From Betaproteobacteria bacterium (lineage in GTDB: Bacteria; Pseudomonadota; Gammaproteobacteria; Burkholderiales; SG8-39): a DNA stretch of 64,000 bases. Shown here one piece after another: positions 2,771-53,428 of the stretch. Location of the stretch: contig CANJXQ010000007.1 of assembly GCA_947478805.1 (NCBI GenBank), positions 15 through 64,014 on the forward strand, in the 5' to 3' direction. The notes beneath the pieces were generated by a model that ran no database searches, was not told the DNA's origin, and was given only the letters and a program-made list of their open reading frames with translations. The translations under genes were made by a program, and so were the position numbers. Every line of letters starts with the position of its first letter. Positions within the stretch are counted from its first letter, which is position 1.

Positions 2771-3100
2771 ATGATGCTCTATTCGATCGAATACTTTCAT
2801 CCGAAAGTGCTTGCCGAAATCGAGTCTTGGCCCGTTGATGTTTTGGCGGACTATGCACGCATCGTAGAGCTTCTCATGAAACACGGCCCGAATCTGAGGC
2901 TTCCGCATTCGAGGACATTTGGTGATGGTCTGTTCGAGCTCAGGCCGAGAGGCAGATCAGGCATTGGACGGGCGTTTTACTGTTTTCTCTTGGGCAGGCG
3001 TGTAGTGGTGCTGCACGCGTTTATCAAGAAATCACAGCAGACGCCAGATCGAGAACTGAAGCTTGCCCGGAAACGCATGAAGGAGATATTTCATGGCTGA
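2771..3100 (+). CDS. Type II toxin, RelE/ParE superfamily, Gp49/HigB-like
   Basis: 109 aa. GDGLFELRPRGRSGIGRAFYCFLLGRRVVVLHAFIKKSQQTPDRELKLARKR matches the phage Gp49-like/HigB-type toxin pattern. The toxin precedes the antitoxin with an 8-nt overlap. G+C is lower than in the flanks. Confidence 0.8.
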   Translation: MMLYSIEYFHPKVLAEIESWPVDVLADYARIVELLMKHGPNLRLPHSRTFGDGLFELRPRGRSGIGRAFYCFLLGRRVVVLHAFIKKSQQTPDRELKLARKRMKEIFHG

Positions 3101-3401
3101 AATTAAATACCAACCCGTAGACCACGATCACAAGGCTTTTCTCAAGAGAGCCAAAAAGCGTCGTGGTTTTCAGACGGCGTACCAGGCTCTCGCGGTCGAG
3201 TATGCGGTCGCGAGCGAAATGCTGGCTGCTCGCTCCCGGGCCGGTCTTACACAAGAAGTGGTGGCCTTTCGCATGGGCACGACAAAAAGCACTGTTTCGC
3301 GCCTTGAGTCGGCTGGCAAGCACGCGCCATCGCTTACGTCACTCAAGAAGTATGCTGAGGCTGTAGGTTGCAAAATTGAGATCAAGCTGGTTCCGAGATA
3401 A
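3093..3401 (+). CDS. XRE-family helix-turn-helix antitoxin (HigA-like)
   Basis: 102 aa with HTH core LTQEVVAFRMGTTKSTVSRLESAG. SD AGGAG at 3081-3085. The ATG lies inside the toxin's terminal codons (ATGGCTGA). Confidence 0.8.
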   Translation: MAEIKYQPVDHDHKAFLKRAKKRRGFQTAYQALAVEYAVASEMLAARSRAGLTQEVVAFRMGTTKSTVSRLESAGKHAPSLTSLKKYAEAVGCKIEIKLVPR

Positions 3402-3424
3402 AGGGGCCTGTCCCCTTTTGTGTT
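3401..3424 (+). terminator. Rho-independent terminator-like hairpin after the antitoxin
   Basis: AAGGGG-CCTGT-CCCCTT followed by TTGTGTT, starting at the last base of the TAA stop. It overlaps the putative GTG start (3420) of the cyclase gene. Confidence 0.55.
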
Positions 3425-4517
3425 CCGGGCGTTCACGATAGGAGCACGATTGATCTACCAGCGCCAATGGCGGGAGTACGTCGCAGCGATCCGCTTCGCG
3501 GCGGTGCTGGGCCTCTTCTTTGGCTTGTCGGCGGGGGCGGTGATGCTCAAGCCGCCGCTGGTGGGTGCCCTTTTCGGCGCGGTGAGCGCTGTAACGGACT
3601 TCTCCGTGGGTATGGCGTTGATCGGCGCCATGGAAATACTTCTGCCACACACGGTCCTCGGACGTCGCCTGCTGGCCCGGCCGTTCCTTGTCGTGGTGCT
3701 GGTGAAGGCCCTGGGGTACCTCGCCGTCGTGGGCCTCGTGATCGGCGGACGGTTGGGGCCGGCGGTGGTGGGGCTGCTGGGCGGAGCGCAAGTCGCGTCG
3801 CGAATTCTGGAGCAGATCGATGCCGCGTTCCCGCGCGGACTCATCGTCGTGTTCGCCGCGCTGGTGACGTTCCTGCTGGTCGTGCTGCGACATGCGTCGC
3901 AGATCATTGGTGAGCAGAGTTTTCGCGACATCATGCGCGGCCGCTACCACCGGCCGCGCTCCGAGGAGCGTTTCTTCCTATTCGTCGATGTGGTGGGCTC
4001 CACGCCGGTAGCCGAGCGCTTGGGCCCGCATGCGGTGCACCGCTACCTCGACCGGGTGTTCCGCATTGCCTCGGACCCTGTGGACGAACACTACGGCGAG
4101 GTGTTCCAGTACGTGGGCGACGAGATGGTGGTCACTTGGACACTCGCCGAGGGGCGCCAGGAGGCGCGGCCGCTCGCGTGCCTCTTCGCCATCGAAGCGG
4201 CGCTCGCGGCGGCGGCCCCGGATTTCGAGCGCGAGTTCGGCACGGTGCCGAAGGTCCGCGCCGCGCTGCACGCGGGCGAAGTCGTCACCGGCGAGATCGG
4301 CGGCAGTCGCCGCGCCATTGTGTTCCACGGCGACGTGATGAACACCACCTCGCGAATAGAAAACGCGACCCGCGAACTGGGGCGGAATTTCCTCGTCTCG
4401 GAAGAAGCGCTCACGCGTCTGGACGACGCATCGGGCTACTCGCCCGAGGACCTCGGACAGCACCAGTTGCGCGGTCGCGAGGCTATGGTGCGGCTGTATA
4501 CGGTGAGGAAAATATGA
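3420..4517 (+). CDS. Membrane-anchored class III adenylate/guanylate cyclase
   Basis: The N-terminal ~170 aa contain several hydrophobic helices. The C-terminal cyclase domain has FFLFVDVVGST, YVGDEMVV and HGDVMNTTSRIE (metal Asp residues plus the Asn/Arg pair). Start uncertain. Confidence 0.8.
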   Translation: MFRAFTIGARLIYQRQWREYVAAIRFAAVLGLFFGLSAGAVMLKPPLVGALFGAVSAVTDFSVGMALIGAMEILLPHTVLGRRLLARPFLVVVLVKALGYLAVVGLVIGGRLGPAVVGLLGGAQVASRILEQIDAAFPRGLIVVFAALVTFLLVVLRHASQIIGEQSFRDIMRGRYHRPRSEERFFLFVDVVGSTPVAERLGPHAVHRYLDRVFRIASDPVDEHYGEVFQYVGDEMVVTWTLAEGRQEARPLACLFAIEAALAAAAPDFEREFGTVPKVRAALHAGEVVTGEIGGSRRAIVFHGDVMNTTSRIENATRELGRNFLVSEEALTRLDDASGYSPEDLGQHQLRGREAMVRLYTVRKI

Positions 4518-9936: not shown

Positions 9937-10824
9937 TCAGGACTTCAGGTGCGTCCCGAAAAAGGCTAGTGTGCGCGACCAGGCGAGCTTGGCCGCGGCA
10001 TCGTCGTAGCGCGGCGTGGTGTCGTTGTGGAAGCCGTGGAGCGTACCCGGGTAGACATGCAGCTCGAATTTCTTGTTGTTGGCCTTGAGGGCGGCCTCGA
10101 ACGCGGGAATACCGGAGTTGATGCGCTCATCAGTGGCGGCGTAGTGGGCGAGGACGGCAGCGTTCATTTTGGCCACGTCCGCGGCGGCAGGCTGAACACC
10201 GTAGAAGGGCGCCACCGCGGCCACCTCGGGAATCCGTACCGATAGCAGGTTGGCAATTCCTCCGCCGAAGCAAAATCCGGTGGCACCGGTCTTGCCGGTG
10301 CATTCCGGGTGTGCCTTGAGAAACAGCGCTGCGGCGACGAGGTCTTCGGTGCGCTTGCCGGCATCGAGGGCGGCGAATTTCTTCGCGGCTTCCTCTTCGT
10401 TGCCAGGGTAGCCGCCCACCGGCGTGAGTGCGTCTGGGGCGAAGGCGATGTAGCCTGCAACGGCAAGCCTGCGGGCCACGTCCTCGATGTAGGGATTGAG
10501 ACCGCGGTTTTCATGGATGACCGTGACGCCGGGATGGCGGCCGCCGCTGGCGGGGCGAGCCAACAGCCCGCGCATGGTCCCGGAGCCCTGCGGCGAGGGG
10601 TAGGTGACGTACTCGGCCTTGATGCGCTTGTCGTCCTTCGGCACCTGCTGCGCCCAGGCAAAATTCGGGCGCAGGCTCTCGAACATCGCGGCGGCAGTCA
10701 TGCCACCCACAGCGAACTTGGCGGCGCCGTCGAGAAAGTCGCGCCGGGTGATGTCGCCGTGCACGTAGCCGTCGAACAGCTTCATGACGCCGGCCGGGAA
10801 GTCGCTTGCTTTCTTGCGTTCCAT
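9937..10824 (-). CDS. Dienelactone hydrolase family protein with twin-arginine signal
   Basis: Tat-like TRRDFLDGAAKFAVGGMTAAAMF...AWAQQ. DLH-type core GATGFCFGGG. I chose the ATG at 10824 (MERKK) because GAGGA lies 8-9 nt upstream. Confidence 0.8.
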   Translation of the reverse strand: MERKKASDFPAGVMKLFDGYVHGDITRRDFLDGAAKFAVGGMTAAAMFESLRPNFAWAQQVPKDDKRIKAEYVTYPSPQGSGTMRGLLARPASGGRHPGVTVIHENRGLNPYIEDVARRLAVAGYIAFAPDALTPVGGYPGNEEEAAKKFAALDAGKRTEDLVAAALFLKAHPECTGKTGATGFCFGGGIANLLSVRIPEVAAVAPFYGVQPAAADVAKMNAAVLAHYAATDERINSGIPAFEAALKANNKKFELHVYPGTLHGFHNDTTPRYDDAAAKLAWSRTLAFFGTHLKS

Positions 10825-10977
10825 GGAATTCGTCCTCACGCTAAGGGTTCGATCGCGGGGATCCCATTGGGAATTTTCCGCGGTATTCGCCAGCCGCTTG
10901 CCGACAGGCCGGCGCGGCGGAACTTTACCCCAGGCAGGGGCAGAATTGGCGAGGAAAATTTCTTTGGCGAGAGGGAC

Positions 10978-10991
10978 TTATTCTGGAATAA
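10978..10991. promoter_or_regulatory. Inverted repeat TTATTC-TG-GAATAA in the divergent intergenic region
   Basis: Read directly from the sequence, ~73 bp upstream of the MBL-fold gene start (11064). Function unknown. Confidence 0.25.
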
Positions 10992-11063
10992 TCCGGCCCG
11001 CGCGCTGTTCGCAACAGTTGCGTCAACCCCCCAATGAACCTTTGAAAAAGTCTGGAGGAGCAC

Positions 11064-12533
11064 ATGTTTTACAAGCGATTTTTCTCGAATTGGGCCCTGC
11101 CGGCGCTCGCGCTGGCCCTGTTGCCTGGCGTAGCCGCGGCACTGGACGCATCTTCCGTGCTCAAGCGTGCCTCGGCGGCAATGGGCAGCACCGAACTGAA
11201 GACCCTGTCCTACAGTGCCGATGGCTGGGGCTACACGTTCGGCCAGGCCTTCGTGCCCACTGCCCACTGGCCCAAGATCCAGATCCGCAGCATGGAGCGC
11301 AGCATCAACTACGACACGGCTTCCATGCGCGAACTGATCACCTACACCCGCGCCGAACCCAAGGGGGGCGGCGGATATCCTCTGGTCGCTCCGCAGACCG
11401 ACGACCGTTACATCAGCGGCGGTTTTGCCTGGAACGTGGCGGGTGGCAACCCTGCCGGCAATCCGCGTTTTGTCCCGGAGCGGATACACGAGCTGTGGAT
11501 CTCCCCGCATGGCGTGCTGAAGGCTGCGATCAAGAACAATGCCACGCTCGAGTTCAAGACGGTCGGCGGGCGTTCGATGGCCGCGGTGTCCTTCACCGAG
11601 GCCGGGCGTTTCAAGGCCACCGCCTACATCAACGAGGACTTCCTGGTTGAGCGGGTCGAGTCACGCTATCCGGAGCACGTCCAGGGCGAAACCGATGTGG
11701 TGACGACGTTTTCGAGCTATCGCGATTTCAACGGGATCAAGTTCCCCAGCCTGATCCAGCAGAAGAACAACGGTCGCTTCACACTCGATGTCACTGTGAC
11801 CAAGGTCGAGCCGAATGCCGCGGTTGCCATCGCGGTCCCGGATGCGGTGCGCAATTACGCCGAGCGCATCACCACGGATAAAGTTGCGGACGGCGTCTGG
11901 TTCGTCGCCGGTGCTTCCCACAACAGCGTGGCCATCGAGATGAAGGATCACCTGGTGCTGGTGGAGTCGCCGCTTGGTGATTTTCGCACTGCGCCGGTGA
12001 TCGAGGCGGTGAAGAAGCTGGCGCCGGGCAAGCCGATTCGCTTCGCGGTCAACTCGCACCATCACTATGATCATTCGGGGGGCGTGCGGGCGGCGGCGGC
12101 TGAAGGTGCAACCATCGTCACGCAGGCGAGGAACAAGAGCCACTATGAAAAGATCCTGGCAAGCAAGGTCACCGTCAATCCGGACCTGTATGCCAAGTCG
12201 GGCAAGAAGGGCAAGGTGATGGCCATTGGCGACAAGGGCCAGCTGACCGATGGCAAGCGCGTGATCGAGATGTACAACATCAAGGACAGCATCCATACCG
12301 ACACGTACCTGATGGTGTACCTGCCTGCCGAAAAACTCCTCATCGAAGCCGACGAGTTCACGCCGGGTCCGCCCAACGCCAAGCCGCCGGCACAGCCGGA
12401 TCCGCGGCACCTGAACCTCGTGAACAATATCGAGCGCCTGAAGCTGTCGGTGGACCGGATCCTTCCGCTTCATGGGCGCGTGGTTCCCATCTCGGAGCTT
12501 TACGCCGCCATCGGCAAGACCGCGCCGCGCTAG
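11064..12533 (+). CDS. Secreted MBL-fold metallo-hydrolase
   Basis: Signal peptide MFYKRFFSNWALPALALALLPGVAAA. Metallo-beta-lactamase motif NSHHHYDHSGG. SD GGAGGA upstream. Confidence 0.8.
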   Translation: MFYKRFFSNWALPALALALLPGVAAALDASSVLKRASAAMGSTELKTLSYSADGWGYTFGQAFVPTAHWPKIQIRSMERSINYDTASMRELITYTRAEPKGGGGYPLVAPQTDDRYISGGFAWNVAGGNPAGNPRFVPERIHELWISPHGVLKAAIKNNATLEFKTVGGRSMAAVSFTEAGRFKATAYINEDFLVERVESRYPEHVQGETDVVTTFSSYRDFNGIKFPSLIQQKNNGRFTLDVTVTKVEPNAAVAIAVPDAVRNYAERITTDKVADGVWFVAGASHNSVAIEMKDHLVLVESPLGDFRTAPVIEAVKKLAPGKPIRFAVNSHHHYDHSGGVRAAAAEGATIVTQARNKSHYEKILASKVTVNPDLYAKSGKKGKVMAIGDKGQLTDGKRVIEMYNIKDSIHTDTYLMVYLPAEKLLIEADEFTPGPPNAKPPAQPDPRHLNLVNNIERLKLSVDRILPLHGRVVPISELYAAIGKTAPR

Positions 12534-42583: not shown

Positions 42584-43468
42584 CTACATCACCAGGCGAT
42601 GGAAGCCCCAGCCTGCCACCGTGAGCCCGCCGAGCAACAGTCCCAGGGGTAAAAGGGGGTGGACGTTGTTGAGCACTCGCATGAGGTTGCATATGAAGCC
42701 CACGGCCTTCTGCGGCGGCGTGACCGGGCTCTTGGAGTACTCCATGGCCGCCTTCACCACGTAGAACACGCCGGTGTTGGCGGCGAGCACTGCGCGAGCC
42801 ATGAAGCCGGACGCGAAGCCAAGCGCGCGCGGGGCGACGAGATAGTTGCATTTGAGCAGGATGCGCTGTTGGTCGTCCGGGTTGTACTCGCCTTCCACCC
42901 AGTGCAGCTCGCGGTGAAAATCGAGGATGCCGAAGTCGTAGGTGGCAAAGGCCTTCTCGATGCGGCTGTCGCCGAAAACGACCTTGTAGGTTCCGTCGGA
43001 CTGCAGGTAGATCAAGGAGCGCACCACCGCGCCCCAGGAGAGGAAGCGCAGGTTGCCGTCGTAATGCTTTCCGTACAGGCCCTCGTCGCCGCCATGGTCC
43101 TTGTTGTAGTGCGAGATATAGAGCTCGTCGGTGTGCTTCATCGGGGTGATGACGTGGTTCCGGTCGAACTGTTGCAGGATGGCGTCGTGGATGACCGGGC
43201 TGTCGCGCAGGCGATCCATCTGGCGGACGATGGATTCGGGCAGCAGCCGGATGTAGACATGCTTGGAGGGGCGGAGTTTCAGGTCCTCGCGAAAGTAGCC
43301 CTCCACCCACCTGGCAAGGCCGTCCACCGTCGATCGGGACGCCATGTCCTCGAAGCGCCCGATGGTGGCGGGGAAACGTCTTGCCGCGCTGCTGTTCCCG
43401 CTGCCGCCCTTGCGCCGCGCTTGCCCGCTGTTCCTTGCGTCCCTTGCGATCTGCGCTGTATCAGTCAT
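42584..43468 (-). CDS. Hypothetical tail-anchored protein, family not assignable
   Basis: 294 aa. Basic low-complexity N-terminus. Central region rich in His/Asp (HYNKDHGGDEGLYGKHYDGNLRF ... DFHRELHWVEGEY). C-terminal hydrophobic anchor LLPLGLLLGGLTVAGWGF. 27-nt gap from the PEMT-like gene. Confidence 0.6.
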   Translation of the reverse strand: MTDTAQIARDARNSGQARRKGGSGNSSAARRFPATIGRFEDMASRSTVDGLARWVEGYFREDLKLRPSKHVYIRLLPESIVRQMDRLRDSPVIHDAILQQFDRNHVITPMKHTDELYISHYNKDHGGDEGLYGKHYDGNLRFLSWGAVVRSLIYLQSDGTYKVVFGDSRIEKAFATYDFGILDFHRELHWVEGEYNPDDQQRILLKCNYLVAPRALGFASGFMARAVLAANTGVFYVVKAAMEYSKSPVTPPQKAVGFICNLMRVLNNVHPLLPLGLLLGGLTVAGWGFHRLVM

Positions 43469-43495: not shown

Positions 43496-44281
43496 CTATG
43501 CGGGGGGTGATGACGGCAATGTGTAGCAGAAATAGATGACAACTGTGTGCGCGAGCAAAGCGGCGCCGACAATTGCGCCGGGGATGGCGCCAAGGTGCGC
43601 GCCCAGGATGGCACCGATGATCGCCCCGGACGTCACGCCGACGACTCGGGTTGGGAGGGCGCGCCTTCGCAGGCCGGCGGTGCTTCCCACGACGCCGTGC
43701 GCGGCGCGTGCGCCTCCTCGCAACGGCGTGACGGCCGTTTCCATGGCGAGAAGGCCGAAGTTCAAGGCGATGTGCAGCGTGGCGAGCGGCCACCAATCGT
43801 CGCGGAATGGAGCATTCAGGAGCGTGCCGCCGAAGGCCGCAATGTTGCCCACCAGCATCGGGTGCGACACCCATCCGTAGGGAAAGGCCATGATGCGCTG
43901 GTGTGGCAGGTCGTTCAGCTCATGGCCGTAGTAGGTGCGATCGGCACCCAGGGCTCGCGCGGCGACGCTGTTCAGGGCAAAGCCGCCCGCGATCACGGCC
44001 AGGGACAGCGCGTCGAGCGGCGTGGCGAAGTAGGCGAAGCCAAGGGCAACAAGCGACACGGTTTTCATCATGACGGCGTCGCGCTTGAAAACCCTCATGG
44101 CCACTGCACCATGGCGATAGGCGAGCCAGTAGAGCACGTAGTGCCAGAAGCTCAGGGCGTAGATGGCCAGTGGGCCGTGCCCATGCAACGCAACAAGCGC
44201 CACCAAGGTAATGAGTACGACGGCGCTGGCGAGCGATGCATGGTCATGCCAGTCGCGGGGGGATGGCGGCATGACGTTCAT
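43496..44281 (-). CDS. Phospholipid/isoprenylcysteine methyltransferase-like (PEMT/ICMT superfamily) membrane protein
   Basis: Polytopic protein. YGHELNDLPHQRIMAFPYGWVSHPMLVGNI resembles the PEMT-family SAM-binding region. Gly-zipper C-terminus GAIIGAILGAHLGAIPGAIVGA. Confidence 0.6.
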   Translation of the reverse strand: MNVMPPSPRDWHDHASLASAVVLITLVALVALHGHGPLAIYALSFWHYVLYWLAYRHGAVAMRVFKRDAVMMKTVSLVALGFAYFATPLDALSLAVIAGGFALNSVAARALGADRTYYGHELNDLPHQRIMAFPYGWVSHPMLVGNIAAFGGTLLNAPFRDDWWPLATLHIALNFGLLAMETAVTPLRGGARAAHGVVGSTAGLRRRALPTRVVGVTSGAIIGAILGAHLGAIPGAIVGAALLAHTVVIYFCYTLPSSPPA

Positions 44282-44312: not shown

Positions 44313-44753
44313 TCATTGCCCGAAATGGAGGGAAACGTGATTCCTGCCGTTCTCTCTCCGGTACGAAATGGCGGTCGGCGTAGAGGTGATCAGCACGCGC
44401 CCGAGGCCACCGATCCGGGCATTGGCCAATGCATGCTGAGCCGCGTCAGCCTCGATATCGGTCGGGTCGAAGGCCGGGCCATCGTCTTCATAGTGGATGT
44501 CCAGCCCCCTTTCGCAGGGAATTGCCTCAATCCAGACTGATAGTTTGGTATCGTCGGCGTGCGTGCCGGCGGCGAGGGCTTTCTCTCGCACGGCGTGGGT
44601 TGCGGAATTGGTAAACAATTCTTCGATGACCAGTTCCAGTTTCTTGACTTGGTACTCTGCAAGACCGGCAGCAACGCCCGCGTCGCGCACGCATTGAATG
44701 ACTTGGTGCATTGCGGTCATTTGGGCGGAGAAATGGTGGCGTCGTGTTGGCAT
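44313..44753 (-). CDS. RsbW/SpoIIAB-like anti-sigma-type serine kinase (HATPase domain)
   Basis: 146 aa. N-box EELFTNSATHA, G1 DDGPAFD, G2 GGLGRVL. The size and layout match partner-switching kinases. Confidence 0.75.
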   Translation of the reverse strand: MPTRRHHFSAQMTAMHQVIQCVRDAGVAAGLAEYQVKKLELVIEELFTNSATHAVREKALAAGTHADDTKLSVWIEAIPCERGLDIHYEDDGPAFDPTDIEADAAQHALANARIGGLGRVLITSTPTAISYRRENGRNHVSLHFGQ

Positions 44754-44781
44754 GGTGGCAACGTGTTATCGATGGGAGGCA

Positions 44782-45252
44782 ATGATGATGATGAAATTCA
44801 AGGAATTCGGGTGGATGGCTGCAGTTCTGGCCGCTTCCGCGGTGGCAACAAGCGCATGGGCCGCCGATGCGGCGGGCGAGGCGGGCATGGTGAAGACGTC
44901 CCGCGGCAGCGTGACCATCGAGCGGCAGGGCGCGCAGCTGGCGGCAGCGCCGGGCTTCAAGGTGCTGTCGTCCGATCGCGTGCGCACCGGGGCCGACAGT
45001 GCCGTGGGCATCACGCTGCGCGACAACACCTCGCTCACGGCGGGCGCCAACACCGTGCTGACGCTGGACCGGTACGCGTTCAACCCGACCACGCATGAAG
45101 GCGCGATGCAGACGTCGCTGCAGAAGGGCTCGCTGGCGGTGATCTCGGGAAAGTTGCCCAAGGCATCACCTGATACGGTGCGCTTCCAGACTTCGTCGGT
45201 GACATTGGGCGTGCGCGGCACGTACTTCATCATCGAGTCGGCAGGGGAGTAG
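44782..45252 (+). CDS. Secreted FecR-domain protein
   Basis: SD GGGAGG, signal peptide MMMMKFKEFGWMAAVLAASAVATSAWA. FecR-type beta region GSVTIERQG...VLSSDRVRTGADSAVGITLRDNTSLTAGANTVLTL. Confidence 0.75.
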   Translation: MMMMKFKEFGWMAAVLAASAVATSAWAADAAGEAGMVKTSRGSVTIERQGAQLAAAPGFKVLSSDRVRTGADSAVGITLRDNTSLTAGANTVLTLDRYAFNPTTHEGAMQTSLQKGSLAVISGKLPKASPDTVRFQTSSVTLGVRGTYFIIESAGE

Positions 45253-45254
45253 CC

Positions 45255-45896
45255 ATGGATCCAGTGATTGTGTTTGCGATTGCGGGTTTCGTCGCGTGGT
45301 GGAACCAGGTGCCGCCACCTCCGCCCAAGCCCGAGGTCAAGGTGGAGGCGCCCAAGGCTGTGCCGGATCGCGTTGTATTGTTGCCCGATGCCGATGGCAA
45401 CGCGGGCGCCGTGGTGTTGCGCGCGGGTTCGGGACCGGAGCAGGTGGTGGACAAGGCCTGGCTCGGCGCCGAGATCACGCGAGAGGGCGCCGTGACGGTG
45501 AGCCCACAGGATCCTGCTGCGGTACAGGCACGCTACGGCGCGCTGCTGGCGGCACGGCCGGCGGCGCCGGTGTCCTACGTGGTGTATTTCCAGTCCGGTG
45601 CCAATGCTCTGACGCCGGAGTCGCGCGCCGTGTTCGATGAGCTCAAGGCGGAACTCGCGCGCCGTCCGGTACCCGAAGTGCAGGTCATCGGCCACACTGA
45701 CCGTGTCGGGCGCCTCGAGGCCAACGACGAGCTGTCGCGTCGTCGCGCCGATGCCGTGCGCGACCTTCTTGTCGCCGCCGGCGTTCCGCGCGACCAGATC
45801 GAGACCTCCGGTCGCGGGGAGCGCGAGCCCCTGGTGCCGACTGCCGACGAGGTCGCCGAGCCGCGCAACCGGCGCGTGGAGATCAGCGTGCGCTGA
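45255..45896 (+). CDS. OmpA-family (peptidoglycan-binding C-domain) protein with N-terminal TM and Pro-rich linker
   Basis: VIGHTDRVGRLEANDELSRRRADAVRDLL...NRRVEI is the OmpA C-like signature. The start lies 2 nt after the FecR-domain gene stop. Confidence 0.8.
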   Translation: MDPVIVFAIAGFVAWWNQVPPPPPKPEVKVEAPKAVPDRVVLLPDADGNAGAVVLRAGSGPEQVVDKAWLGAEITREGAVTVSPQDPAAVQARYGALLAARPAAPVSYVVYFQSGANALTPESRAVFDELKAELARRPVPEVQVIGHTDRVGRLEANDELSRRRADAVRDLLVAAGVPRDQIETSGRGEREPLVPTADEVAEPRNRRVEISVR

Positions 45897-45909
45897 CGTC
45901 AGGGCCCGG

Positions 45910-45934
45910 CTGGCGCTGCTTATGGCAGCGCCAG
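45910..45934. terminator. Perfect 10-bp-stem hairpin between convergent genes (probable bidirectional terminator)
   Basis: CTGGCGCTGC-TTATG-GCAGCGCCAG. No strong T-run. Confidence 0.45.
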
Positions 45935-45958
45935 CGCGCCGCATCTTCGTATCCCGCT

Positions 45959-48076
45959 TCATCGCGCCCCGTGCCATTGAATGGCGAGCAGCGTCAGGTC
46001 GTCGGAGGGCTCGGCGCCGGCCACGAACCGGCGCACGTCTTCGCGCACGGCCGTGATCGTGCCCGCTGCGCCGCTGCGTGCGGCGGCGCTGGCGAGCACC
46101 CTATCGAGCCGTTGCGCGCCATAGGGTGAGAGTTCGCCGTTCATGGCTTCGGTGACGCCGTCGGTAACAAGGCACACCGTGTCGCCGGGCTGCAGCTGCA
46201 ATCCAAGTGCCTGGTAGTCGAAACCGTCGAGCATGCACAGCGGCGGACCGCCCTCGCCATCGGCGAGTTCGAGCGGGCTCGAGGCGCGCAGGATGCGCGG
46301 GGCGTCGTGGCCGGCAATGCACAGCTCCAGCGCGCCGGTGTCCACATCAAGCACCCCAGCCGCCATGGTGACGAACAGCATTTCAGGATTCTCGCGGGCG
46401 ATTTCCTCATTGGTGGCGGTCACGATGGCGGAGGCTCCCGCTGCCCCGCGCAGCGCGACGCTCTTGGCGAGGGCCTTGGTGACGGCCATGAAAAGGCTTG
46501 CCGGCACGCCTTTGCCCGAGACATCGCCGACGACGAAGAACAGTCGTTGCGCGTCGAGCATGAAGAAGTCGTACAGGTCACCGCCCACGTCGCGCGCGGG
46601 CTCAAGCAATGCAGCCACCGTGAAGCGCGTCTCTCCAGGGAAAGCCTTCGCCGGGTCGGGCAGCGTGCCCAGCTGAATGCGTCGCGCGGCGGCCAGTTCG
46701 CCGGCCGTCTGCGCTGCTGCCTCACGCTCGCGATGCAGTTCGGCTTCGGCGACCCGGCGCTGGCGGTCGGCTTCGATGAAGGCGCTGCCCAAGAGGCTGC
46801 CCAACACGATGTTGAGGCTGGCAAAGGCGCCCGCGGCGTCGAGCAGCAAGCCGGCGAACTTGAAAGTCGCAAACCCCGCGCCGAAGAGCACCCCGTACAG
46901 GATGATGGCGAGAAAGATCGCCAGGCGCGGTCGAAGCGCCGGCACCGCCCAGATGAGGAACGCGCCGCCCGCCACGAGGAGCGCGGTCTCCAGCCATCCC
47001 ATCCAGCGCGGCCTGAGCAGGAGGTCGTTGTCGAACAGGCTCTCAAGCAACTGTGCCTGGATTTCTACGCCCGGTACCTGCTCGCGCAGCGGCGTGAGGC
47101 GGTTGTCGACAAGGCCGAACCCGGACAGGCCTATCAGCACCAGCTTGTTCTGGATGGTATCGGCCGGCACCTTGCCCGCAAGCACCGCGGCGGCCGACAC
47201 GTAGCGCGCCGGGTCGGCCTTGCCGAAGTGCAGCCACACCTCGGCATCGGACTGCGTGTTCACGGCGAGGTCGGCCACGCGCACGTGATTGACGCCCAAG
47301 GGCCCCATGTCCACCTCGGCGGCGGGCGAGCCTGTGGCGATGCGCAGCATCTCGATGGCTAGGGACGGCAGCAGCGCATCGCCCACCCCCAGCACCAGCG
47401 GGATGCGCCGTACCACGGCGCCCTGCAGGTCCACTGACAAGAGCCCCTGGCCGCGGGCGGCCGCCTGCAGTTCGGGCAGGCTGGCGAGCACGAAGGGGTA
47501 GCGACGCACATGCGACAGCGCGTCGGCATCGCTGCCGCCGTTGACGCGCACCGGTGTTGCGCGCAGGGCGCGCGAAGTGGTGAGTGTCTCGTTGTCGAAC
47601 CCGGCCGCGCCCAGCACCGTGGGCGTCTCGCGGATGACATCGGCCAACACGCGGTCGTGGTCGGGCAGCGCCATGAGCGCACGTCGAAGCGCTTCCTGGC
47701 CCTTTTCCAGGCGCGCCGCCATTTTCGCGGGCGAGGTCTGGTCCGGCTCCGGCATGTAGATGTCCACGCCGATGGCGGCCGGATTCATGCGGCCGATGAC
47801 GCGGATCAGTTCGGCGGTGCGGTCGCGCGGCCACGGCCACTGGCCGATTTCCTTGAGGCTTGCCTCGTCGATGTCCACGATGACCACGGGCGCGGAGTCG
47901 CGTGCGCGCGGGAACACTGACTGGTACTGGTCGAATAGTTCCAGCCGCGCCACCTTGAAGGGCGTGCGCTCGGGGAATTGCGCAACCACCACCAGCCCGA
48001 TCAGGAGTGCTGTCGCCATCGGGCGGCCGTCGCCGGCCTGGAACAGCCGGCGCAGATAGGCCAGGGCGCGCCTCAC
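45959..48076 (-). CDS. CHASE2 sensor domain - transmembrane - PP2C/SpoIIE serine phosphatase (RsbU-like)
   Basis: 705 aa. CHASE2 hallmark IDEASLKEIGQWPWPRDR. Three or four TM helices around residues 355-440. A coiled linker. PP2C motifs GGDLYDFF, VGDVSGKGVPASLFM, LVTDGVTEA. Confidence 0.85.
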   Translation of the reverse strand: MRRALAYLRRLFQAGDGRPMATALLIGLVVVAQFPERTPFKVARLELFDQYQSVFPRARDSAPVVIVDIDEASLKEIGQWPWPRDRTAELIRVIGRMNPAAIGVDIYMPEPDQTSPAKMAARLEKGQEALRRALMALPDHDRVLADVIRETPTVLGAAGFDNETLTTSRALRATPVRVNGGSDADALSHVRRYPFVLASLPELQAAARGQGLLSVDLQGAVVRRIPLVLGVGDALLPSLAIEMLRIATGSPAAEVDMGPLGVNHVRVADLAVNTQSDAEVWLHFGKADPARYVSAAAVLAGKVPADTIQNKLVLIGLSGFGLVDNRLTPLREQVPGVEIQAQLLESLFDNDLLLRPRWMGWLETALLVAGGAFLIWAVPALRPRLAIFLAIILYGVLFGAGFATFKFAGLLLDAAGAFASLNIVLGSLLGSAFIEADRQRRVAEAELHREREAAAQTAGELAAARRIQLGTLPDPAKAFPGETRFTVAALLEPARDVGGDLYDFFMLDAQRLFFVVGDVSGKGVPASLFMAVTKALAKSVALRGAAGASAIVTATNEEIARENPEMLFVTMAAGVLDVDTGALELCIAGHDAPRILRASSPLELADGEGGPPLCMLDGFDYQALGLQLQPGDTVCLVTDGVTEAMNGELSPYGAQRLDRVLASAAARSGAAGTITAVREDVRRFVAGAEPSDDLTLLAIQWHGAR

Positions 48077-48143
48077 GCGACACCTGCCGGCGTCGAGCGC
48101 TTCATCGCGCTTTGCTCAAGGAAAAGGCGCCCATGACATGCGC

Positions 48144-49118
48144 CTAGAGGACGATTTCCAGGCCGTCCCACGCCGATAGCACTTCCAGCGCTGAATCGCC
48201 GCGGGTGATTTCCTCGAAGCGGCGCGTCTCGGCAAGCACGCTGTCGATGCGCTTGTCGTCATAGGCGGGTTCATGATGGATCATGCACAGCCGGCGCGCG
48301 CCGGCCATCTGGCACAGCTCAACTCCGACGATGTTGCTCGAGTGACCCCAGTCGGCCTTCACGGAAATCGCATCGGCGAGCGAATACATGGCGTCGAAGA
48401 TCACCAGGTCGGCATTGCGGAAGAAATCCACGAAGACTTTGGTTTCCTCGGCATTTTCGAGGCGGTGCTCGGAATCAGTGGAGTACACCACCGACTTGCC
48501 GGCGCGCTCGAAACGCCAGCCGTAGGAGTCCCCGCCGTGGTGCTGTTTCAGGGTGGTCGCGGTGACGCCAGCGACATGGCGCGTGTCACCCGGTGCCATC
48601 ACGTCGAATTCGATGGTGGATGCGAGCAGCGAGAAGTCCACCGGGAAGGAGGGCGCGGCCTGCTGGCGCTTGAAGGCGTGCTCGAGCTCGGCATGGCAGC
48701 CGTGGATCACGATGCGGTTGCCGGGGATGTAGACGGGTGTGAAGAAGGGGAAGCCCATGATGTGGTCCCAGTGCACATGGGACATGAACACATGATAGGT
48801 CTGCGGGCGGGCGGGGCCGTAGCGCTCCATCATGCGCTGGCCGAAGGCGCGCGCGCCGCTGCCCATGTCGCACAGCAGGTGCTCGTTGCCGGTGTCCTCG
48901 GCTCCGGTCTCGATCTCGACGCAGCTCGAATGACCGCCATAGGTGCCGGACACCGCGAAGCCCAGGCTGTCGATGAAGCGCTCGATGCCCGCGTCGTCGC
49001 CGATGGGCTGGGCGCGGTCTCGCGCGGCGCGCAGCGCCGCGGCGATCTTGGCGCGCACATCCTTCGCCGTGATCGATACCGGGATGGAGCCGCGCGTGCC
49101 CCAGAATCTCACCTTCAT
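48144..49118 (-). CDS. MBL-fold metallo-hydrolase (PhnP / class-II-phosphodiesterase-like), cytoplasmic
   Basis: MKVRFWGTRGSIPV N-terminus. Metal motif FMSHVHWDHIMGFPFF. Later DSEH and HHEP. Start at 49118, 10 nt after the STAS gene stop. Confidence 0.8.
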   Translation of the reverse strand: MKVRFWGTRGSIPVSITAKDVRAKIAAALRAARDRAQPIGDDAGIERFIDSLGFAVSGTYGGHSSCVEIETGAEDTGNEHLLCDMGSGARAFGQRMMERYGPARPQTYHVFMSHVHWDHIMGFPFFTPVYIPGNRIVIHGCHAELEHAFKRQQAAPSFPVDFSLLASTIEFDVMAPGDTRHVAGVTATTLKQHHGGDSYGWRFERAGKSVVYSTDSEHRLENAEETKVFVDFFRNADLVIFDAMYSLADAISVKADWGHSSNIVGVELCQMAGARRLCMIHHEPAYDDKRIDSVLAETRRFEEITRGDSALEVLSAWDGLEIVL

Positions 49119-49128
49119 GCGCGGACCT

Positions 49129-49482
49129 TCACGCTGCGGTGCCAAGTGCCGCGACGCCGGCATCCACGGTGTCGTGGACTTTCAGCACCAGGTGAAAGCG
49201 GCTGATCTCGAACACTTCGCGCACGGTGGGTTGCAGCGCGGCAATCGCGACCTTGCCCTTTTGCGCCCCCACGGAGCGCGCGATCAGCATGAGCGAGCGC
49301 AGCCCGACGCTGGAGATGTAATCGACACCGGAAAAATCCAGCAGCAGCGGGCTGCCCTCCTGGGTGCAGGCGGCCACGTGGGATTGCATCGCCTGCTGGA
49401 ACAGCGGCGCCTGGGCGTGATCGATGCGTCCCTTGGGCGCCACAACCGTGATTGCGCCGATCTGCGTGCTGCTCAGTTCCAT
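49129..49482 (-). CDS. STAS-domain anti-sigma-factor antagonist (RsbV/SpoIIAA-like)
   Basis: 117 aa from MELSS. LLLDFSGVDYISSVGLRSL retains the phosphorylatable Ser context of SpoIIAA/RsbV. Confidence 0.8.
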   Translation of the reverse strand: MELSSTQIGAITVVAPKGRIDHAQAPLFQQAMQSHVAACTQEGSPLLLDFSGVDYISSVGLRSLMLIARSVGAQKGKVAIAALQPTVREVFEISRFHLVLKVHDTVDAGVAALGTAA

Positions 49483-51052: not shown

Positions 51053-51226
51053 ATAAGTGCAGATGGGCCTGCGGTCGAATCGGCCCGGCGATGCCGCCGT
51101 TTGATGTGCCGCAAGGAAAGTGCCGATCACTGGTGCTCAAATGGGCGGTACGGAGGTGGCGTTTGGATGCGAGGGCATCTTCGCCGCCGGGCGTGTCGAT
51201 GCATCGTTGACGGACCGGGACAGCAG

Positions 51227-53428
51227 ATGACTGAAACCAAGACCAGCAACCTGGCCGGCGATTTCTGGGGTGGCATGGCTGCCATGCTGGTCGCCTTGCC
51301 GTCGGCGATCGCCTTTGGCGTGACAGTTTTTGCGCCGCTCGGCGCGAGCTATGCGGCGCAGGGGGCGCTGGCGGGCATCCTCGGCGCCACCGCGCTCGGA
51401 CTGGTGGCATCCTATCTCGGCGGCACCAACCGCCTGATCACGGCGCCCTGCGCGCCGGCGGCGGCCGTGCTCTCCGCGTTCGCCATCCAGCTGATGCAGG
51501 GTAACACCGCTCCAGCCACCATCCTGCTGATGATGACGGTCATCGGCCTGTTGTGCGGCGCGCTGCAGCTGACGTTCGGGTTGGCGGGCGTCGGTCGCCT
51601 GATCAAGTACATGCCTTATCCTGTAGTTAGCGGGTACTTGAGCGGCGTGGGCCTGATCATCATCCTCAGCCAGATTCCGAAGCTGCTTGGCGTCCCCAAG
51701 GGCATGAATCTCGAGCACGCGCTGATTTCTCCCGACGCTTGGAACTGGAAGGGCATTACCGTCGGGGTAGTCACGGCGGCGGTAATGGTTTTCGCCCCAC
51801 GCGTCACCAAGGTCGTCCCAGCGGCGATTCTCGGGCTGGTTGCGGGCGTGTTCACCTATGCCGGGCTCGGGTTCGCCGACGCTTCGCTGTTCTCGCTCAA
51901 GGGGAATTCCCTGATCATCGGCCCCCTGGGTGGATCGGATGCCGGATTCCTCGATGGGTTGTCCGCGCGCTGGAAGGGCGTCGGTGGATTGGACCTCACC
52001 CTGCTCAAGGACTTGCTGGTGCCGGCATTGACGCTGGCCGTGCTGCTCTCCATCGACACGCTGAAGACCTGCGTGGTGCTGGATTCGCTCACCAAGAGCC
52101 GGCACGACTCCAACCGCGAGCTGATTGGCCAGGGGCTGGGCAACCTGGCCGCCACGCTGGTGGGCGGGATCCCCGGCGCCGGTACCATGGGCGCGACGCT
52201 GGTCAATATCTCGAGCGGCGCGCAGACGCGCACCTCCGGCCTGATCGAGGGCGTGCTTGCGCTCATGGCCTTCCTGCTGCTGGGCTCGGTGATCGCATGG
52301 ATTCCGATCGCGGCGCTGGCCGCGATCCTGATCGTCATCGGCGTGCGCATGTTCGATGTGCACAGCCTGCAGCTGCTGCGCAACCGTTCCACCATCCTCG
52401 ATTTCGTGGTGATCGTGGCGGTGGTGGCGGTCGCGGAGACGGTCAGCCTGATCGCGGCCTCCGGCACTGGCATCGCGCTGGCGGCCCTGTTGTTCATCCG
52501 CGAGAAGGTCACCACGTCCTGCGTGCGGCGCAAGGTCTACGGCAACCAGGTTTTCTCCAAGCAGATCCGGCTGCCGGAGGAGCGCGCGATACTGGAAGCG
52601 CGCGGCAACCAGTCGGTGGTGTTCGAACTGCAGGGCAGCCTCTTCTTCGGCACCGCGGACCAGTTGTACACGGCGCTGGAACCGGACCTGAAAACCTGCA
52701 ACTACGTGATCCTGGATCTGCGCCGGGTGCAGTCGGTCGACGTGACGGCCGCGCACATGCTCGAGCAGGTCGAGGGCATGCTGTCCGAGCGCGGCGCCTT
52801 CCTGATCTTCAGCCAGTTGCCGCGCAAGGTGCCGACCGGGCAGGACATGGCGCAGTACTTCGTCCAGGTGGGCTTGGCGCGCCCGGAGCGGCATGCACCG
52901 GTGTTTGATGAACTGGACGATGCGCTGGAGTGGGTGGAGAACCGCATCCTGGCCGAAGCGCATACGGTGCTGGTCGCCGAGGCGCCCCTGGAGCTGAAGG
53001 AAATCAGCATGTTCAGGGGGCGCAAGCAGGAGACCGTGGCCGAGCTCGAAGCCGGCATGGAAAAGCGCTCGCTCAAGGCCGGCGAACATGCCTTTTCACA
53101 GGGCGACACCGGTGATGAGCTGTTCCTCATCCGCAAGGGGTCGGTGCGCATCATGTTGCCGGTAGCGGAAGGCCAGGACCACCACATCGCCACCTTCGGG
53201 CGTGGCGACTTCTTCGGCGAGATGGCATTCCTCGATCGCAACCCGCGGTCGGCGCATGCCGTGGCCGAGGTAGATACGGATCTCTATGTGTTGTCGCGCG
53301 CGAAGTTCGACGAAATCACGGCGGCGCATCGCAAGCTGGCGATCCAGTTGCTCGAGGGTCTCGCGCGGACGCTGGCCGACCGCCTGCGCTACACCAACAT
53401 GGAATTGCGCACGCTGCAGGCTTCGTAG
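51227..53428 (+). CDS. SulP-family anion transporter fused to a STAS domain and a C-terminal cyclic-nucleotide-binding domain
   Basis: SulP core (FWGGMAAMLVALPSAIAFG ...). STAS (VVFELQGSLFFGTADQL...ILDLRRVQSVDVTA). CAP-type cNMP domain with phosphate-binding cassette GDFFGEMAFLDRNPRSAHAVA. Confidence 0.85.
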   Translation: MTETKTSNLAGDFWGGMAAMLVALPSAIAFGVTVFAPLGASYAAQGALAGILGATALGLVASYLGGTNRLITAPCAPAAAVLSAFAIQLMQGNTAPATILLMMTVIGLLCGALQLTFGLAGVGRLIKYMPYPVVSGYLSGVGLIIILSQIPKLLGVPKGMNLEHALISPDAWNWKGITVGVVTAAVMVFAPRVTKVVPAAILGLVAGVFTYAGLGFADASLFSLKGNSLIIGPLGGSDAGFLDGLSARWKGVGGLDLTLLKDLLVPALTLAVLLSIDTLKTCVVLDSLTKSRHDSNRELIGQGLGNLAATLVGGIPGAGTMGATLVNISSGAQTRTSGLIEGVLALMAFLLLGSVIAWIPIAALAAILIVIGVRMFDVHSLQLLRNRSTILDFVVIVAVVAVAETVSLIAASGTGIALAALLFIREKVTTSCVRRKVYGNQVFSKQIRLPEERAILEARGNQSVVFELQGSLFFGTADQLYTALEPDLKTCNYVILDLRRVQSVDVTAAHMLEQVEGMLSERGAFLIFSQLPRKVPTGQDMAQYFVQVGLARPERHAPVFDELDDALEWVENRILAEAHTVLVAEAPLELKEISMFRGRKQETVAELEAGMEKRSLKAGEHAFSQGDTGDELFLIRKGSVRIMLPVAEGQDHHIATFGRGDFFGEMAFLDRNPRSAHAVAEVDTDLYVLSRAKFDEITAAHRKLAIQLLEGLARTLADRLRYTNMELRTLQAS

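Follow-up and report, generated by a model that had tools for sequence, protein, structure and literature searches.

A conserved six-gene cassette that probably forms a sigma-less partner switch, with a metallo-β-lactamase-fold hydrolase as its candidate output

A 64,000-nucleotide stretch of DNA from a betaproteobacterial genome assembly (GenBank GCA_947478805.1, contig CANJXQ010000007.1), the whole of which we call the window, contains a compact group of six signaling genes that is the subject of this report. They encode an RsbW/SpoIIAB-type serine kinase of 146 amino acids (aa) (44313-44753, minus strand; Pfam HATPase_c_2, 3e-13), a secreted FecR-domain protein of 156 aa (44782-45252, plus strand; Pfam FecR, 1.3e-9), a peptidoglycan-binding OmpA_C protein of 213 aa (45255-45896, plus strand; Pfam OmpA, 4e-22), a sensor phosphatase of 705 aa (45959-48076, minus strand; Pfam CHASE2, 8.5e-49, and SpoIIE/PP2C, 1.4e-42), a cytoplasmic metallo-β-lactamase (MBL)-fold hydrolase of 324 aa (48144-49118, minus strand; Pfam Lactamase_B_2, 1.3e-17), and a STAS protein of 117 aa (49129-49482, minus strand; Pfam STAS, 3.4e-17). 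The same six genes appear in the independent gene calls of the source, a metagenome scaffold (ENA ERZ28612979, MEHR18-2 scaffold_3581). The nearest relatives of the window are Betaproteobacteria and Rhodocyclaceae; its GC content is about 65%, and the remainder of its content consists largely of transport and catabolic genes.

A preliminary description of this DNA had listed the six genes with their signature motifs and with spacings of 28, 2, and 10 nucleotides (nt). All of these are present in the sequence and its translations, and Pfam and NCBIfam searches back the domain assignments of the kinase, the STAS protein, the PP2C phosphatase, and the other three proteins. The divergent start codons of the kinase and FecR genes are separated by a spacer of only 28 nt (44754-44781), so that any promoters located there must overlap the adjoining coding sequences. 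This gap is also short in relatives of the locus, with a median of 62 nt and a minimum of 18 between the envelopes of hidden Markov model (HMM) matches. The OmpA start follows the FecR stop by just 2 nt, the MBL start comes 10 nt after the STAS stop, and the convergent OmpA and phosphatase stops are 62 nt apart.

We compared the kinase and the STAS protein with known partner-switching proteins and found that the PP2C, STAS, and HATPase set of a partner switch is complete at this locus, as had been proposed. The AlphaFold2 (AF2) model of the kinase (mean predicted local distance difference test score, pLDDT, 81) has its top Foldseek matches in RsbW (6m37), SpoIIAB (1til, 1th8, and 1l0o), UsfX (8ih8), and SiaB (6kko), and the RsbW domain of Rv1364c is also among the leading structural matches. 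Neither a single-sequence search nor a profile search of the PDB gave a usable match for the kinase, and the protein scored 16 bits against the NCBIfam RsbW model, for which the cut-off is 145. The ATP-binding residues conserved in it are the Glu and Asn of the N-box, the Asp of DDGPAFD in the G1 region, and the GGLG box, and we class it with RsbW and SpoIIAB among the small HATPase_c_2 serine kinases. The STAS protein scored 72.5 bits against TIGR00377, "anti-sigma factor antagonist" (cut-off 53.45), and its nearest solved sequences are the SpoIIAA-like antagonists 4hyl, 4qtp, TM1442, and RsfB. In the 44 related loci described below, Ser58, Gly60, Leu61, and Arg62 each show conservation of 95% or more. 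The predicted phospho-acceptor, judged from this sequence context, is Ser58 in YIS-S58-V-G-L, two residues ahead of the Gly-Leu pair; the same position carries the phosphate in SpoIIAA (Ser58) and RsbV (Ser56). The gene therefore encodes a single-domain STAS antagonist with a conserved, phosphorylatable serine.

The remaining three signaling proteins point toward the cell envelope. An extracytoplasmic input made up of FecR, OmpA, and CHASE2 had been suggested from the letters of the sequence, and the domain calls, transmembrane segments, and signal sequence bear this out. The phosphatase consists of an N-terminal hydrophobic segment, a periplasmic CHASE2 domain, three transmembrane helices (approximately residues 360-428 in a hydropathy scan), a helical linker, and a PP2C/SpoIIE domain. 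None of the PP2C catalytic motifs GGDLYD, GDVSGKG, TDGxTE, and SDD varies among 13 homologues, and all of them are intact in the phosphatase. Its CHASE2-PP2C architecture is common, being shared at E <= 1e-20 by over 1700 homologues within the set of scored candidates. A general activation mechanism that operates through the linker and dimerization has been described for RsbU-type phosphatases (PMC12143880), and the helices and helical linker of the window's phosphatase fit that mechanism. The FecR protein, whose gene has GGAGG ahead of its ATG run, begins with a Sec-type signal sequence (KFKEFGWMAAVLAASAVATSAWA/AD), and the OmpA_C protein begins with MDPVIVFAIAGFVAWW followed by PPPPP, a hydrophobic anchor and Pro-rich linker; both of these features were read directly from the sequence.

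The OmpA gene is translationally coupled to the FecR gene and adjoins it in 35 of the related loci, and the pair of a CHASE2 protein and a secreted FecR protein is kept in at least 35 loci as well as in variants that have no MBL gene. In three of these variants (L045, L049, and L055), which are without both MBL and OmpA, FecR still accompanies the CHASE2-PP2C phosphatase, which indicates that FecR belongs to the sensor and MBL to the switch. The FecR protein is predicted to be the periplasmic partner of the CHASE2 domain. Similar pairs have been reported elsewhere. The Burkholderia "BiofilmReg" operon places a CHASE2 histidine kinase beside a FecR protein with a peptidoglycan-binding LysM domain (PMC5192318), in Sinorhizobium meliloti the adenylate cyclase CyaD1 (SMc02176) lies beside the FecR protein SMc02177 (PMC5498481), and CHASE2 adenylate-cyclase clusters with a FecR protein occur in Campylobacterota (PMC9239204). 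The FecR-LysM protein of Burkholderia parallels the OmpA_C partner found here. The known outputs of such pairs are a histidine kinase or an adenylate cyclase, whereas in this cassette the output is a PP2C phosphatase that feeds a STAS switch. One Burkholderiales metagenome-assembled genome (MAG) (L018, 3389-5654) carries two tandem OmpA-FecR pairs between its phosphatase and kinase genes.

A scan for relatives, using one genome per species, yielded 80 loci, in which we identified the cassette genes with iterated profiles built from the window's six proteins. STAS, MBL, and PP2C genes occur together in 44 of the 80, and among these 44 the order STAS>MBL>PP2C is kept in 42, with the MBL gene directly downstream of STAS. 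The fully canonical arrangement, STAS>MBL>CHASE2-PP2C> <OmpA <FecR kinase>, is present in 34 loci, representing 34 other species-level genomes; overall, we estimate that this order is shared by about 35-40 species. The preliminary description had made its case depend on whether this neighborhood is conserved, and the gene order is in fact kept across several phyla, with cassette loci spanning at least eight classes or phyla. Canonical loci occur in Betaproteobacteria (Duganella, Rugamonas, Rhodoferax, Gallionellaceae, Azonexaceae, Casimicrobiaceae, and Usitatibacter), in Gammaproteobacteria (Lysobacter and Salinisphaerales), in Alphaproteobacteria (an unclassified MAG, L022, and Sphingomonas alba), and in Rokubacteria/Methylomirabilota, Dormibacterota, Acidobacteriota (Sulfotelmatobacter), and Binatus. 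Cultured hosts include Duganella flavida FT135W, Rugamonas sp. CCM 8940, Chitinimonas prasina, and Sphingomonas alba SE158. The kinase gene sits at its canonical position, divergent from FecR, in 34 loci; its separation from the STAS and phosphatase genes, which had been remarked upon in the window, is thus a conserved feature of the cassette and not a peculiarity of this DNA.

The surroundings of the cassette are not conserved. Pfam-annotated loci from Sulfuritalea, Chitinimonas prasina, and Propionivibrio (51-55% identity) have the six genes in identical order and orientation within wholly different flanks. All-against-all clustering of 2845 flanking open reading frames (ORFs) yielded no flanking family shared by more than 5 of the 44, and the leading clusters were restricted to close relatives or belonged to a generic multi-copy PAS-GGDEF-EAL family that varied in distance and side. 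Given a conserved order within unrelated flanks, we conclude that the six genes form a self-contained unit, and that this unit is very probably a real partner switch that operates without a sigma factor.

Several loci depart from the canonical arrangement. In a near-canonical deltaproteobacterium (L035) the order is STAS>kinase>MBL>PP2C, in a near-canonical Rhodospirillaceae MAG (L021) the kinase was not detected, and a rearranged locus (L056) reads PP2C>kinase>STAS> <MBL. A Desulfobacterales locus (L077, 6212-14344) has the order MBL > SBP_bac_3-PP2C > kinase > STAS, with SBP_bac_3 replacing CHASE2; a 1504-aa SBP-PAS histidine kinase is encoded directly after this variant cassette. The MBL gene therefore stays with the switch despite rearrangement (L035 and L056) and despite a change of sensor (L077).

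Partner-switching modules are usually regarded as regulators of sigma factors, and in systems of the RsbUVW or SpoIIE-AA-AB type a cognate sigma factor, bound by the kinase, is encoded together with the switch. We found no such cognate gene here. In agreement with the preliminary description, no Sigma70 or Sigma54 domain is present among the scanned genes of the window, including the larger ORFs in gaps, as judged from Pfam scans or precomputed Pfam annotation. The possibility that orthologous loci regularly carry an adjacent sigma factor had also been raised, and none emerged from the flank clustering of the 44 loci or from the Pfam-annotated neighborhoods of the Sulfuritalea, Chitinimonas, and Propionivibrio loci. 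A phmmer search with Escherichia coli RpoE and Bacillus subtilis SigB/SigF queries gave one weak match in one locus, and we discarded it as too insensitive. In 14 of the 44 loci, which are GC-rich, the STAS start codon is preceded at a distance of 32-58 nt by a near-consensus -10 hexamer (TATAAT or TATACT), and in a fifteenth the distance is 78 nt; random windows drawn from these loci would lead one to expect about 0.5 (examples are L004, L007, L028, L030, L040, and L050). By their sequence, these hexamers suggest ordinary sigma-70 promoters, and nothing in them points to an alternative sigma factor that regulates its own switch.

If no sigma factor is the target, the six genes themselves offer a candidate output, the MBL hydrolase. 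It is the best-conserved protein of the cassette, with a median identity to the window protein of 60.4% in canonical loci, compared with 48.9% for OmpA, 48.2% for FecR, 46.6% for STAS, 45.9% for PP2C, and 30.0% for the kinase, which is the fastest-evolving member. Measured from one HMM envelope to the next, the median gaps that separate the MBL gene from STAS and PP2C are 28 and 14 nt; in several loci the genes overlap. When 1.84 billion cluster representatives were searched with a profile, 7863 members of the MBL family emerged, 1402 of them at E <= 1e-30. Among the best 150 family representatives, 45 have MBL fused to STAS, 8 in the order STAS-MBL and 37 in the order MBL-STAS, and none of the 150 has a fusion to a HATPase_c_2 kinase. 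Each of the 10 fusions that we sampled has both STAS and Lactamase_B_2 according to Pfam. At the DNA level, one ORF encodes the whole MBL-STAS fusion in 8 independent metagenome contigs, and NCBI records from Candidatus Desulfobacula maris and other MAGs contain it as well. The acceptor Ser/Thr motif is retained in the fusions with an N-terminal STAS domain.

Half of the sampled fusions (5 of 10) continue into a Hanks-type kinase domain as MBL-STAS-Pkinase, and 3 of these 5 add AAA_16, 1 of the 3 having TPR as well. Such proteins, with or without AAA_16 and TPR, reach about 1640 aa and make up about 30 of the best 150 representatives (e.g., P0280, P0291, P0303, P0284, and P0293). In the neighborhood of the MBL-STAS fusion we found no adjacent PP2C or HATPase kinase gene. 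In two Desulfobacula-like contigs (GC 41%), a gene for a GAF-HD-GYP protein (HD_5) follows the MBL-STAS fusion (L089, 7432-9162; L094, 7628-9301); their upstream flanks differ, and the downstream GAF-HD-GYP gene may hint at a link to cyclic-nucleotide turnover.

The MBL protein was thus linked to a STAS domain in every genomic context that we examined, and since relatives fuse the two, we consider MBL a core component of the cassette. An enzyme is genetically coupled here to the phospho-switch protein, as in modules whose direct output is an enzyme. Of the outputs suggested in the preliminary description, the embedded MBL hydrolase therefore stands, and the membrane genes co-oriented with the kinase do not. 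Both of the latter, a PEMT-like gene (43496-44281) and a gene for a 294-aa membrane or hypothetical protein (42584-43468), turned up only on contigs with the window's own sequence, and none of the more than 80 related loci has them.

What kind of enzyme might this be? The residues H114, H116, D118, H119, H142, D215, H259, and H281/H282 are invariant in 40 homologues, so the HxHxDH metal-ligand motif is complete, and with its metal ligands invariant the protein would be expected to be catalytically active. The best structural matches of its AF2 model (pLDDT 81) are the ElaC homologue 1zkp, YhfI (6kns), RNase Z, PhnP, PqqB, yeast PDE1, and Apyc1, at E values of 1e-13 to 1e-8, identities of 12-21%, and TM-scores of approximately 0.5-0.6, and the nearest PDB protein by sequence is YhfI (3.6e-6). 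Scores against curated models are below threshold, at 56.2 against 292.95 for RNase Z (TIGR02651), 43.4 against 400 for a cyclic-nucleotide phosphodiesterase (NF041851), and 30.3 against 333 for GntH, and the Pfam match to Apyc1 is weak or faint. Judged by its modeled fold, the enzyme belongs mainly to the phosphodiesterase branch of the MBL superfamily. It shares with phosphodiesterase-type MBL enzymes the fold and the HxHxDH motif plus downstream His and Asp, and differs from them in its low identity, its subthreshold scores, its link to STAS, and a family-specific helical insertion of approximately 45 residues after the N-terminal WGTRGS strand.

On the basis of these modeled relationships, the most plausible target is a nucleotide second messenger or RNA. 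The hints toward nucleotide messengers are weak, comprising the faint similarity to Apyc1 and cyclic-nucleotide phosphodiesterases, the GAF-HD-GYP neighbor in one lineage, and the presence of a cAMP phosphodiesterase along with the FecR protein in the CHASE2-cyclase clusters of Campylobacterota (PMC9239204). We also considered whether the cassette might serve in antiphage defense. PADLOC returned no defense-system match for the kinase, FecR protein, phosphatase, MBL protein, or STAS protein, and only a generic MotB/ZorB-type match for OmpA; with five of the six proteins negative, we set that reading aside.

Taking these observations together, we lean toward a model in which an MBL enzyme of the phosphodiesterase type is gated by phosphorylation of Ser58 in the STAS protein, so that the output of the switch is enzymatic, and we judge this model to have slightly better than an even chance of being correct. 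The secreted FecR protein, the OmpA_C protein anchored in the inner membrane, and the CHASE2 ectodomain would together form an envelope sensor, whose signal would cross the membrane and, via the helical linker, alter the activity of the PP2C domain. The RsbW-type kinase would place a phosphate on Ser58 of the STAS protein and the PP2C domain would remove it. In one of its two states (by analogy, probably the unphosphorylated one), STAS would bind the MBL protein and switch its activity. The output would then not be transcriptional, and the kinase would act purely as a kinase, with no anti-sigma role. It is the fusion pattern, together with the relative conservation rates of the proteins, that leads us to favor action of STAS on MBL.

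Two other explanations of the same genes seem to us improbable, each to the same degree. In the first, the MBL protein takes the place of the sigma factor: the kinase would bind and inhibit it, and dephosphorylated STAS would capture the kinase and free the enzyme. This would keep the textbook logic with the fewest changes, kinases of the RsbW/SpoIIAB fold do sequester their targets, and kinase, STAS, and MBL co-occur in 34-37 loci. Were it so, however, one would not expect 45 fusions to STAS and 0 to HATPase_c_2 among the best 150 MBL representatives, nor that the fused forms carry a Hanks-type kinase, which has no sequestering role. The kinase is also the fastest-evolving protein of the cassette (30%) and MBL the slowest (60%), which is unexpected for two partners in a tight inhibitory complex, and the kinase gene forms a divergent transcription unit of its own.

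In the second, the true target (a sigma factor, a diguanylate cyclase, or something else) is encoded elsewhere, and the MBL protein is an accessory or a passenger of the operon. Targets encoded in trans are known for other partner switches, four related sets (L045, L049, L055, and L023) manage without an MBL gene, and GGDEF/EAL genes lie a few kilobases away in 5 of the 44 loci. A passenger, however, would not be the best-conserved protein, kept between STAS and PP2C across phyla in nearly all loci, and would not be fused to STAS in both orders. The five loci with GGDEF/EAL genes, a number that no flanking family exceeds, involve the generic multi-copy family mentioned above, with its varying distance and side, and the excess of sigma-70 -10 hexamers upstream of STAS (15 of 44 loci) also argues against this explanation.

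It is less probable still that the direction of control is reversed, with the MBL protein acting on the switch, either by resetting a modified STAS protein or by making or destroying a ligand of STAS or the kinase, as feedback or input. The MBL-STAS-Hanks kinase fusions, which have no PP2C domain, could be read in this manner, with MBL as the opposing hydrolase, and the fusions themselves give no direction. Nevertheless, the cassette already has a dedicated PP2C phosphatase with intact catalytic motifs, and the nearest structural relatives of the MBL protein hydrolyze phosphodiester bonds in nucleotides or RNA, not phosphoproteins. Finally, a chance adjacency of unrelated signaling genes in one genome, for which nothing speaks except that such genes are common in these genomes, has practically no probability, being refuted by the 34 further species that share order and orientation within unrelated flanks.

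Several observations weigh against gating of the MBL enzyme by phosphorylated STAS, and we gather them here. First, gene fusion indicates functional coupling without direction, and MBL could act on or upstream of STAS. Second, in the Hanks-kinase fusions the acceptor position is often Thr and sometimes Val, Ile, or Met; the hydrophobic residues imply that phospho-control is not universal in the wider family. Third, the CHASE2-PP2C/STAS/kinase sets that have no MBL gene (L045, L049, L055, and L023) show that the switch can evidently serve other outputs. The neighbors of L045, L055, and L023 are unrelated to one another (SDR, aminotransferase, and glutaminase genes) and offer no substitute output. 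Fourth, the MBL protein falls so far below every curated family cut-off that assignment of a substrate is speculative. Lastly, the S. meliloti FecR protein beside the CHASE2 cyclase was dispensable for signal perception in the assay used (PMC5498481), and this weakens the case for FecR as a co-sensor.

One of the sets without MBL, the alphaproteobacterial variant L055, is arranged as <FecR CHASE2-PP2C> <kinase <STAS. Its glutaminase gene (10793-11920, minus strand) lies directly upstream of STAS and is not shared with the sister variant L045.

How does the cassette compare with partner switches that have been characterized? With the RsbU-RsbV-RsbW and SpoIIE-SpoIIAA-SpoIIAB systems of Bacillus it shares a PP2C phosphatase, a single-domain STAS protein with an acceptor Ser, and a HATPase_c_2 kinase. 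Unlike those systems, it has no sigma factor in the operon, among the scanned genes of the window, or in the recurrent flanks of the 44 loci, its kinase gene lies in a divergent unit, and an MBL gene is inserted between those for STAS and the phosphatase. It takes its input through a membrane-bound CHASE2 domain partnered by FecR and OmpA, whereas theirs comes from RsbT and the stressosome or from FtsZ-linked cues.

Targets other than sigma factors are found in the SiaABCD and SypA/SypE systems. In SiaABCD of Pseudomonas aeruginosa, which comprises the PP2C phosphatase SiaA, the kinase SiaB, the switch protein SiaC, and the diguanylate cyclase SiaD, the direct target of SiaC is an enzyme rather than a sigma factor. 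The cassette is likewise composed of a membrane PP2C phosphatase, a small kinase, and a small switch protein, and SiaB is among the structural matches of its kinase. SiaA is the best NCBIfam match of the cassette phosphatase, although at 48.8 bits against a cut-off of 700 the two are not orthologous, and the cassette differs in its CHASE2/FecR/OmpA sensor, in its MBL hydrolase, and in having no GGDEF gene. A second precedent comes from Anabaena PCC 7120, where HenR/All4160, a glycosyltransferase with a STAS domain, is controlled by phosphorylation through dedicated kinases and a PP2C phosphatase (PMC13555669). There the STAS domain is physically attached to the enzyme that it regulates, a design shared by the STAS-MBL and MBL-STAS fusions. 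The enzymes differ (glycosyltransferase versus MBL hydrolase), STAS and enzyme are separate proteins in the window, and the input modules are not alike.

We did not find this cassette described in the literature that we searched, nor CHASE2 combined with partner switching, and hydrolases go unmentioned in a review of STAS-only proteins. Partner switches that work without a sigma factor are already known, as are CHASE2-FecR pairs, and what is new in our proposal is the gating of an MBL phosphodiesterase by phospho-STAS. If the proposal is true, the cassette adds a metallo-hydrolase as a new class of output for partner switching, and CHASE2 gains a tractable enzymatic read-out. The cassette brings together, in one testable unit, a CHASE2 sensor, its accompanying periplasmic FecR proteins, and an MBL subfamily as yet unnamed, and it is both phylogenetically broad and experimentally approachable. 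The STAS-MBL fusions give a direct experimental handle because regulator and enzyme share one polypeptide.

A wider claim, which we offer tentatively and think more likely to fail than to hold, is that gating of an MBL phosphodiesterase by phospho-STAS is a widespread signaling output, existing both in the form of the cassette and, as the MBL-STAS-Hanks kinase proteins, in the form of a single protein. CHASE2, FecR, and OmpA would then read a signal from the envelope or from peptidoglycan, and the enzyme would respond by destroying a nucleotide second messenger or cutting a specific RNA.

Other features of the window can be described briefly. An antisense ORF of 403 aa (44766-45977, minus strand; GC content at third codon positions, GC3, 0.81) overlaps the FecR and OmpA genes. 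A simple GC3-based caller favors it, but we rejected it as a gene, regarding it as a shadow ORF of high-GC DNA, as Pfam supports the plus-strand genes. The window also encodes a class III nucleotidyl cyclase (3420-4517, plus strand; Guanylate_cyc, 8e-14) and a SulP-STAS-cNMP_binding transporter (51101-53428, plus strand), neither of which is kept beside the cassette in its relatives. An ORF of 489 aa (11064-12533, plus strand) has a coding-like composition (GC3 0.81) and no Pfam match at E <= 1e-5. At 2771-3401 on the plus strand, a Gp49/HigB-like gene (2.9e-26) is followed by an HTH_3 gene; the two resemble a toxin-antitoxin pair and are located in the stretch of the window with the lowest GC content (0.60).

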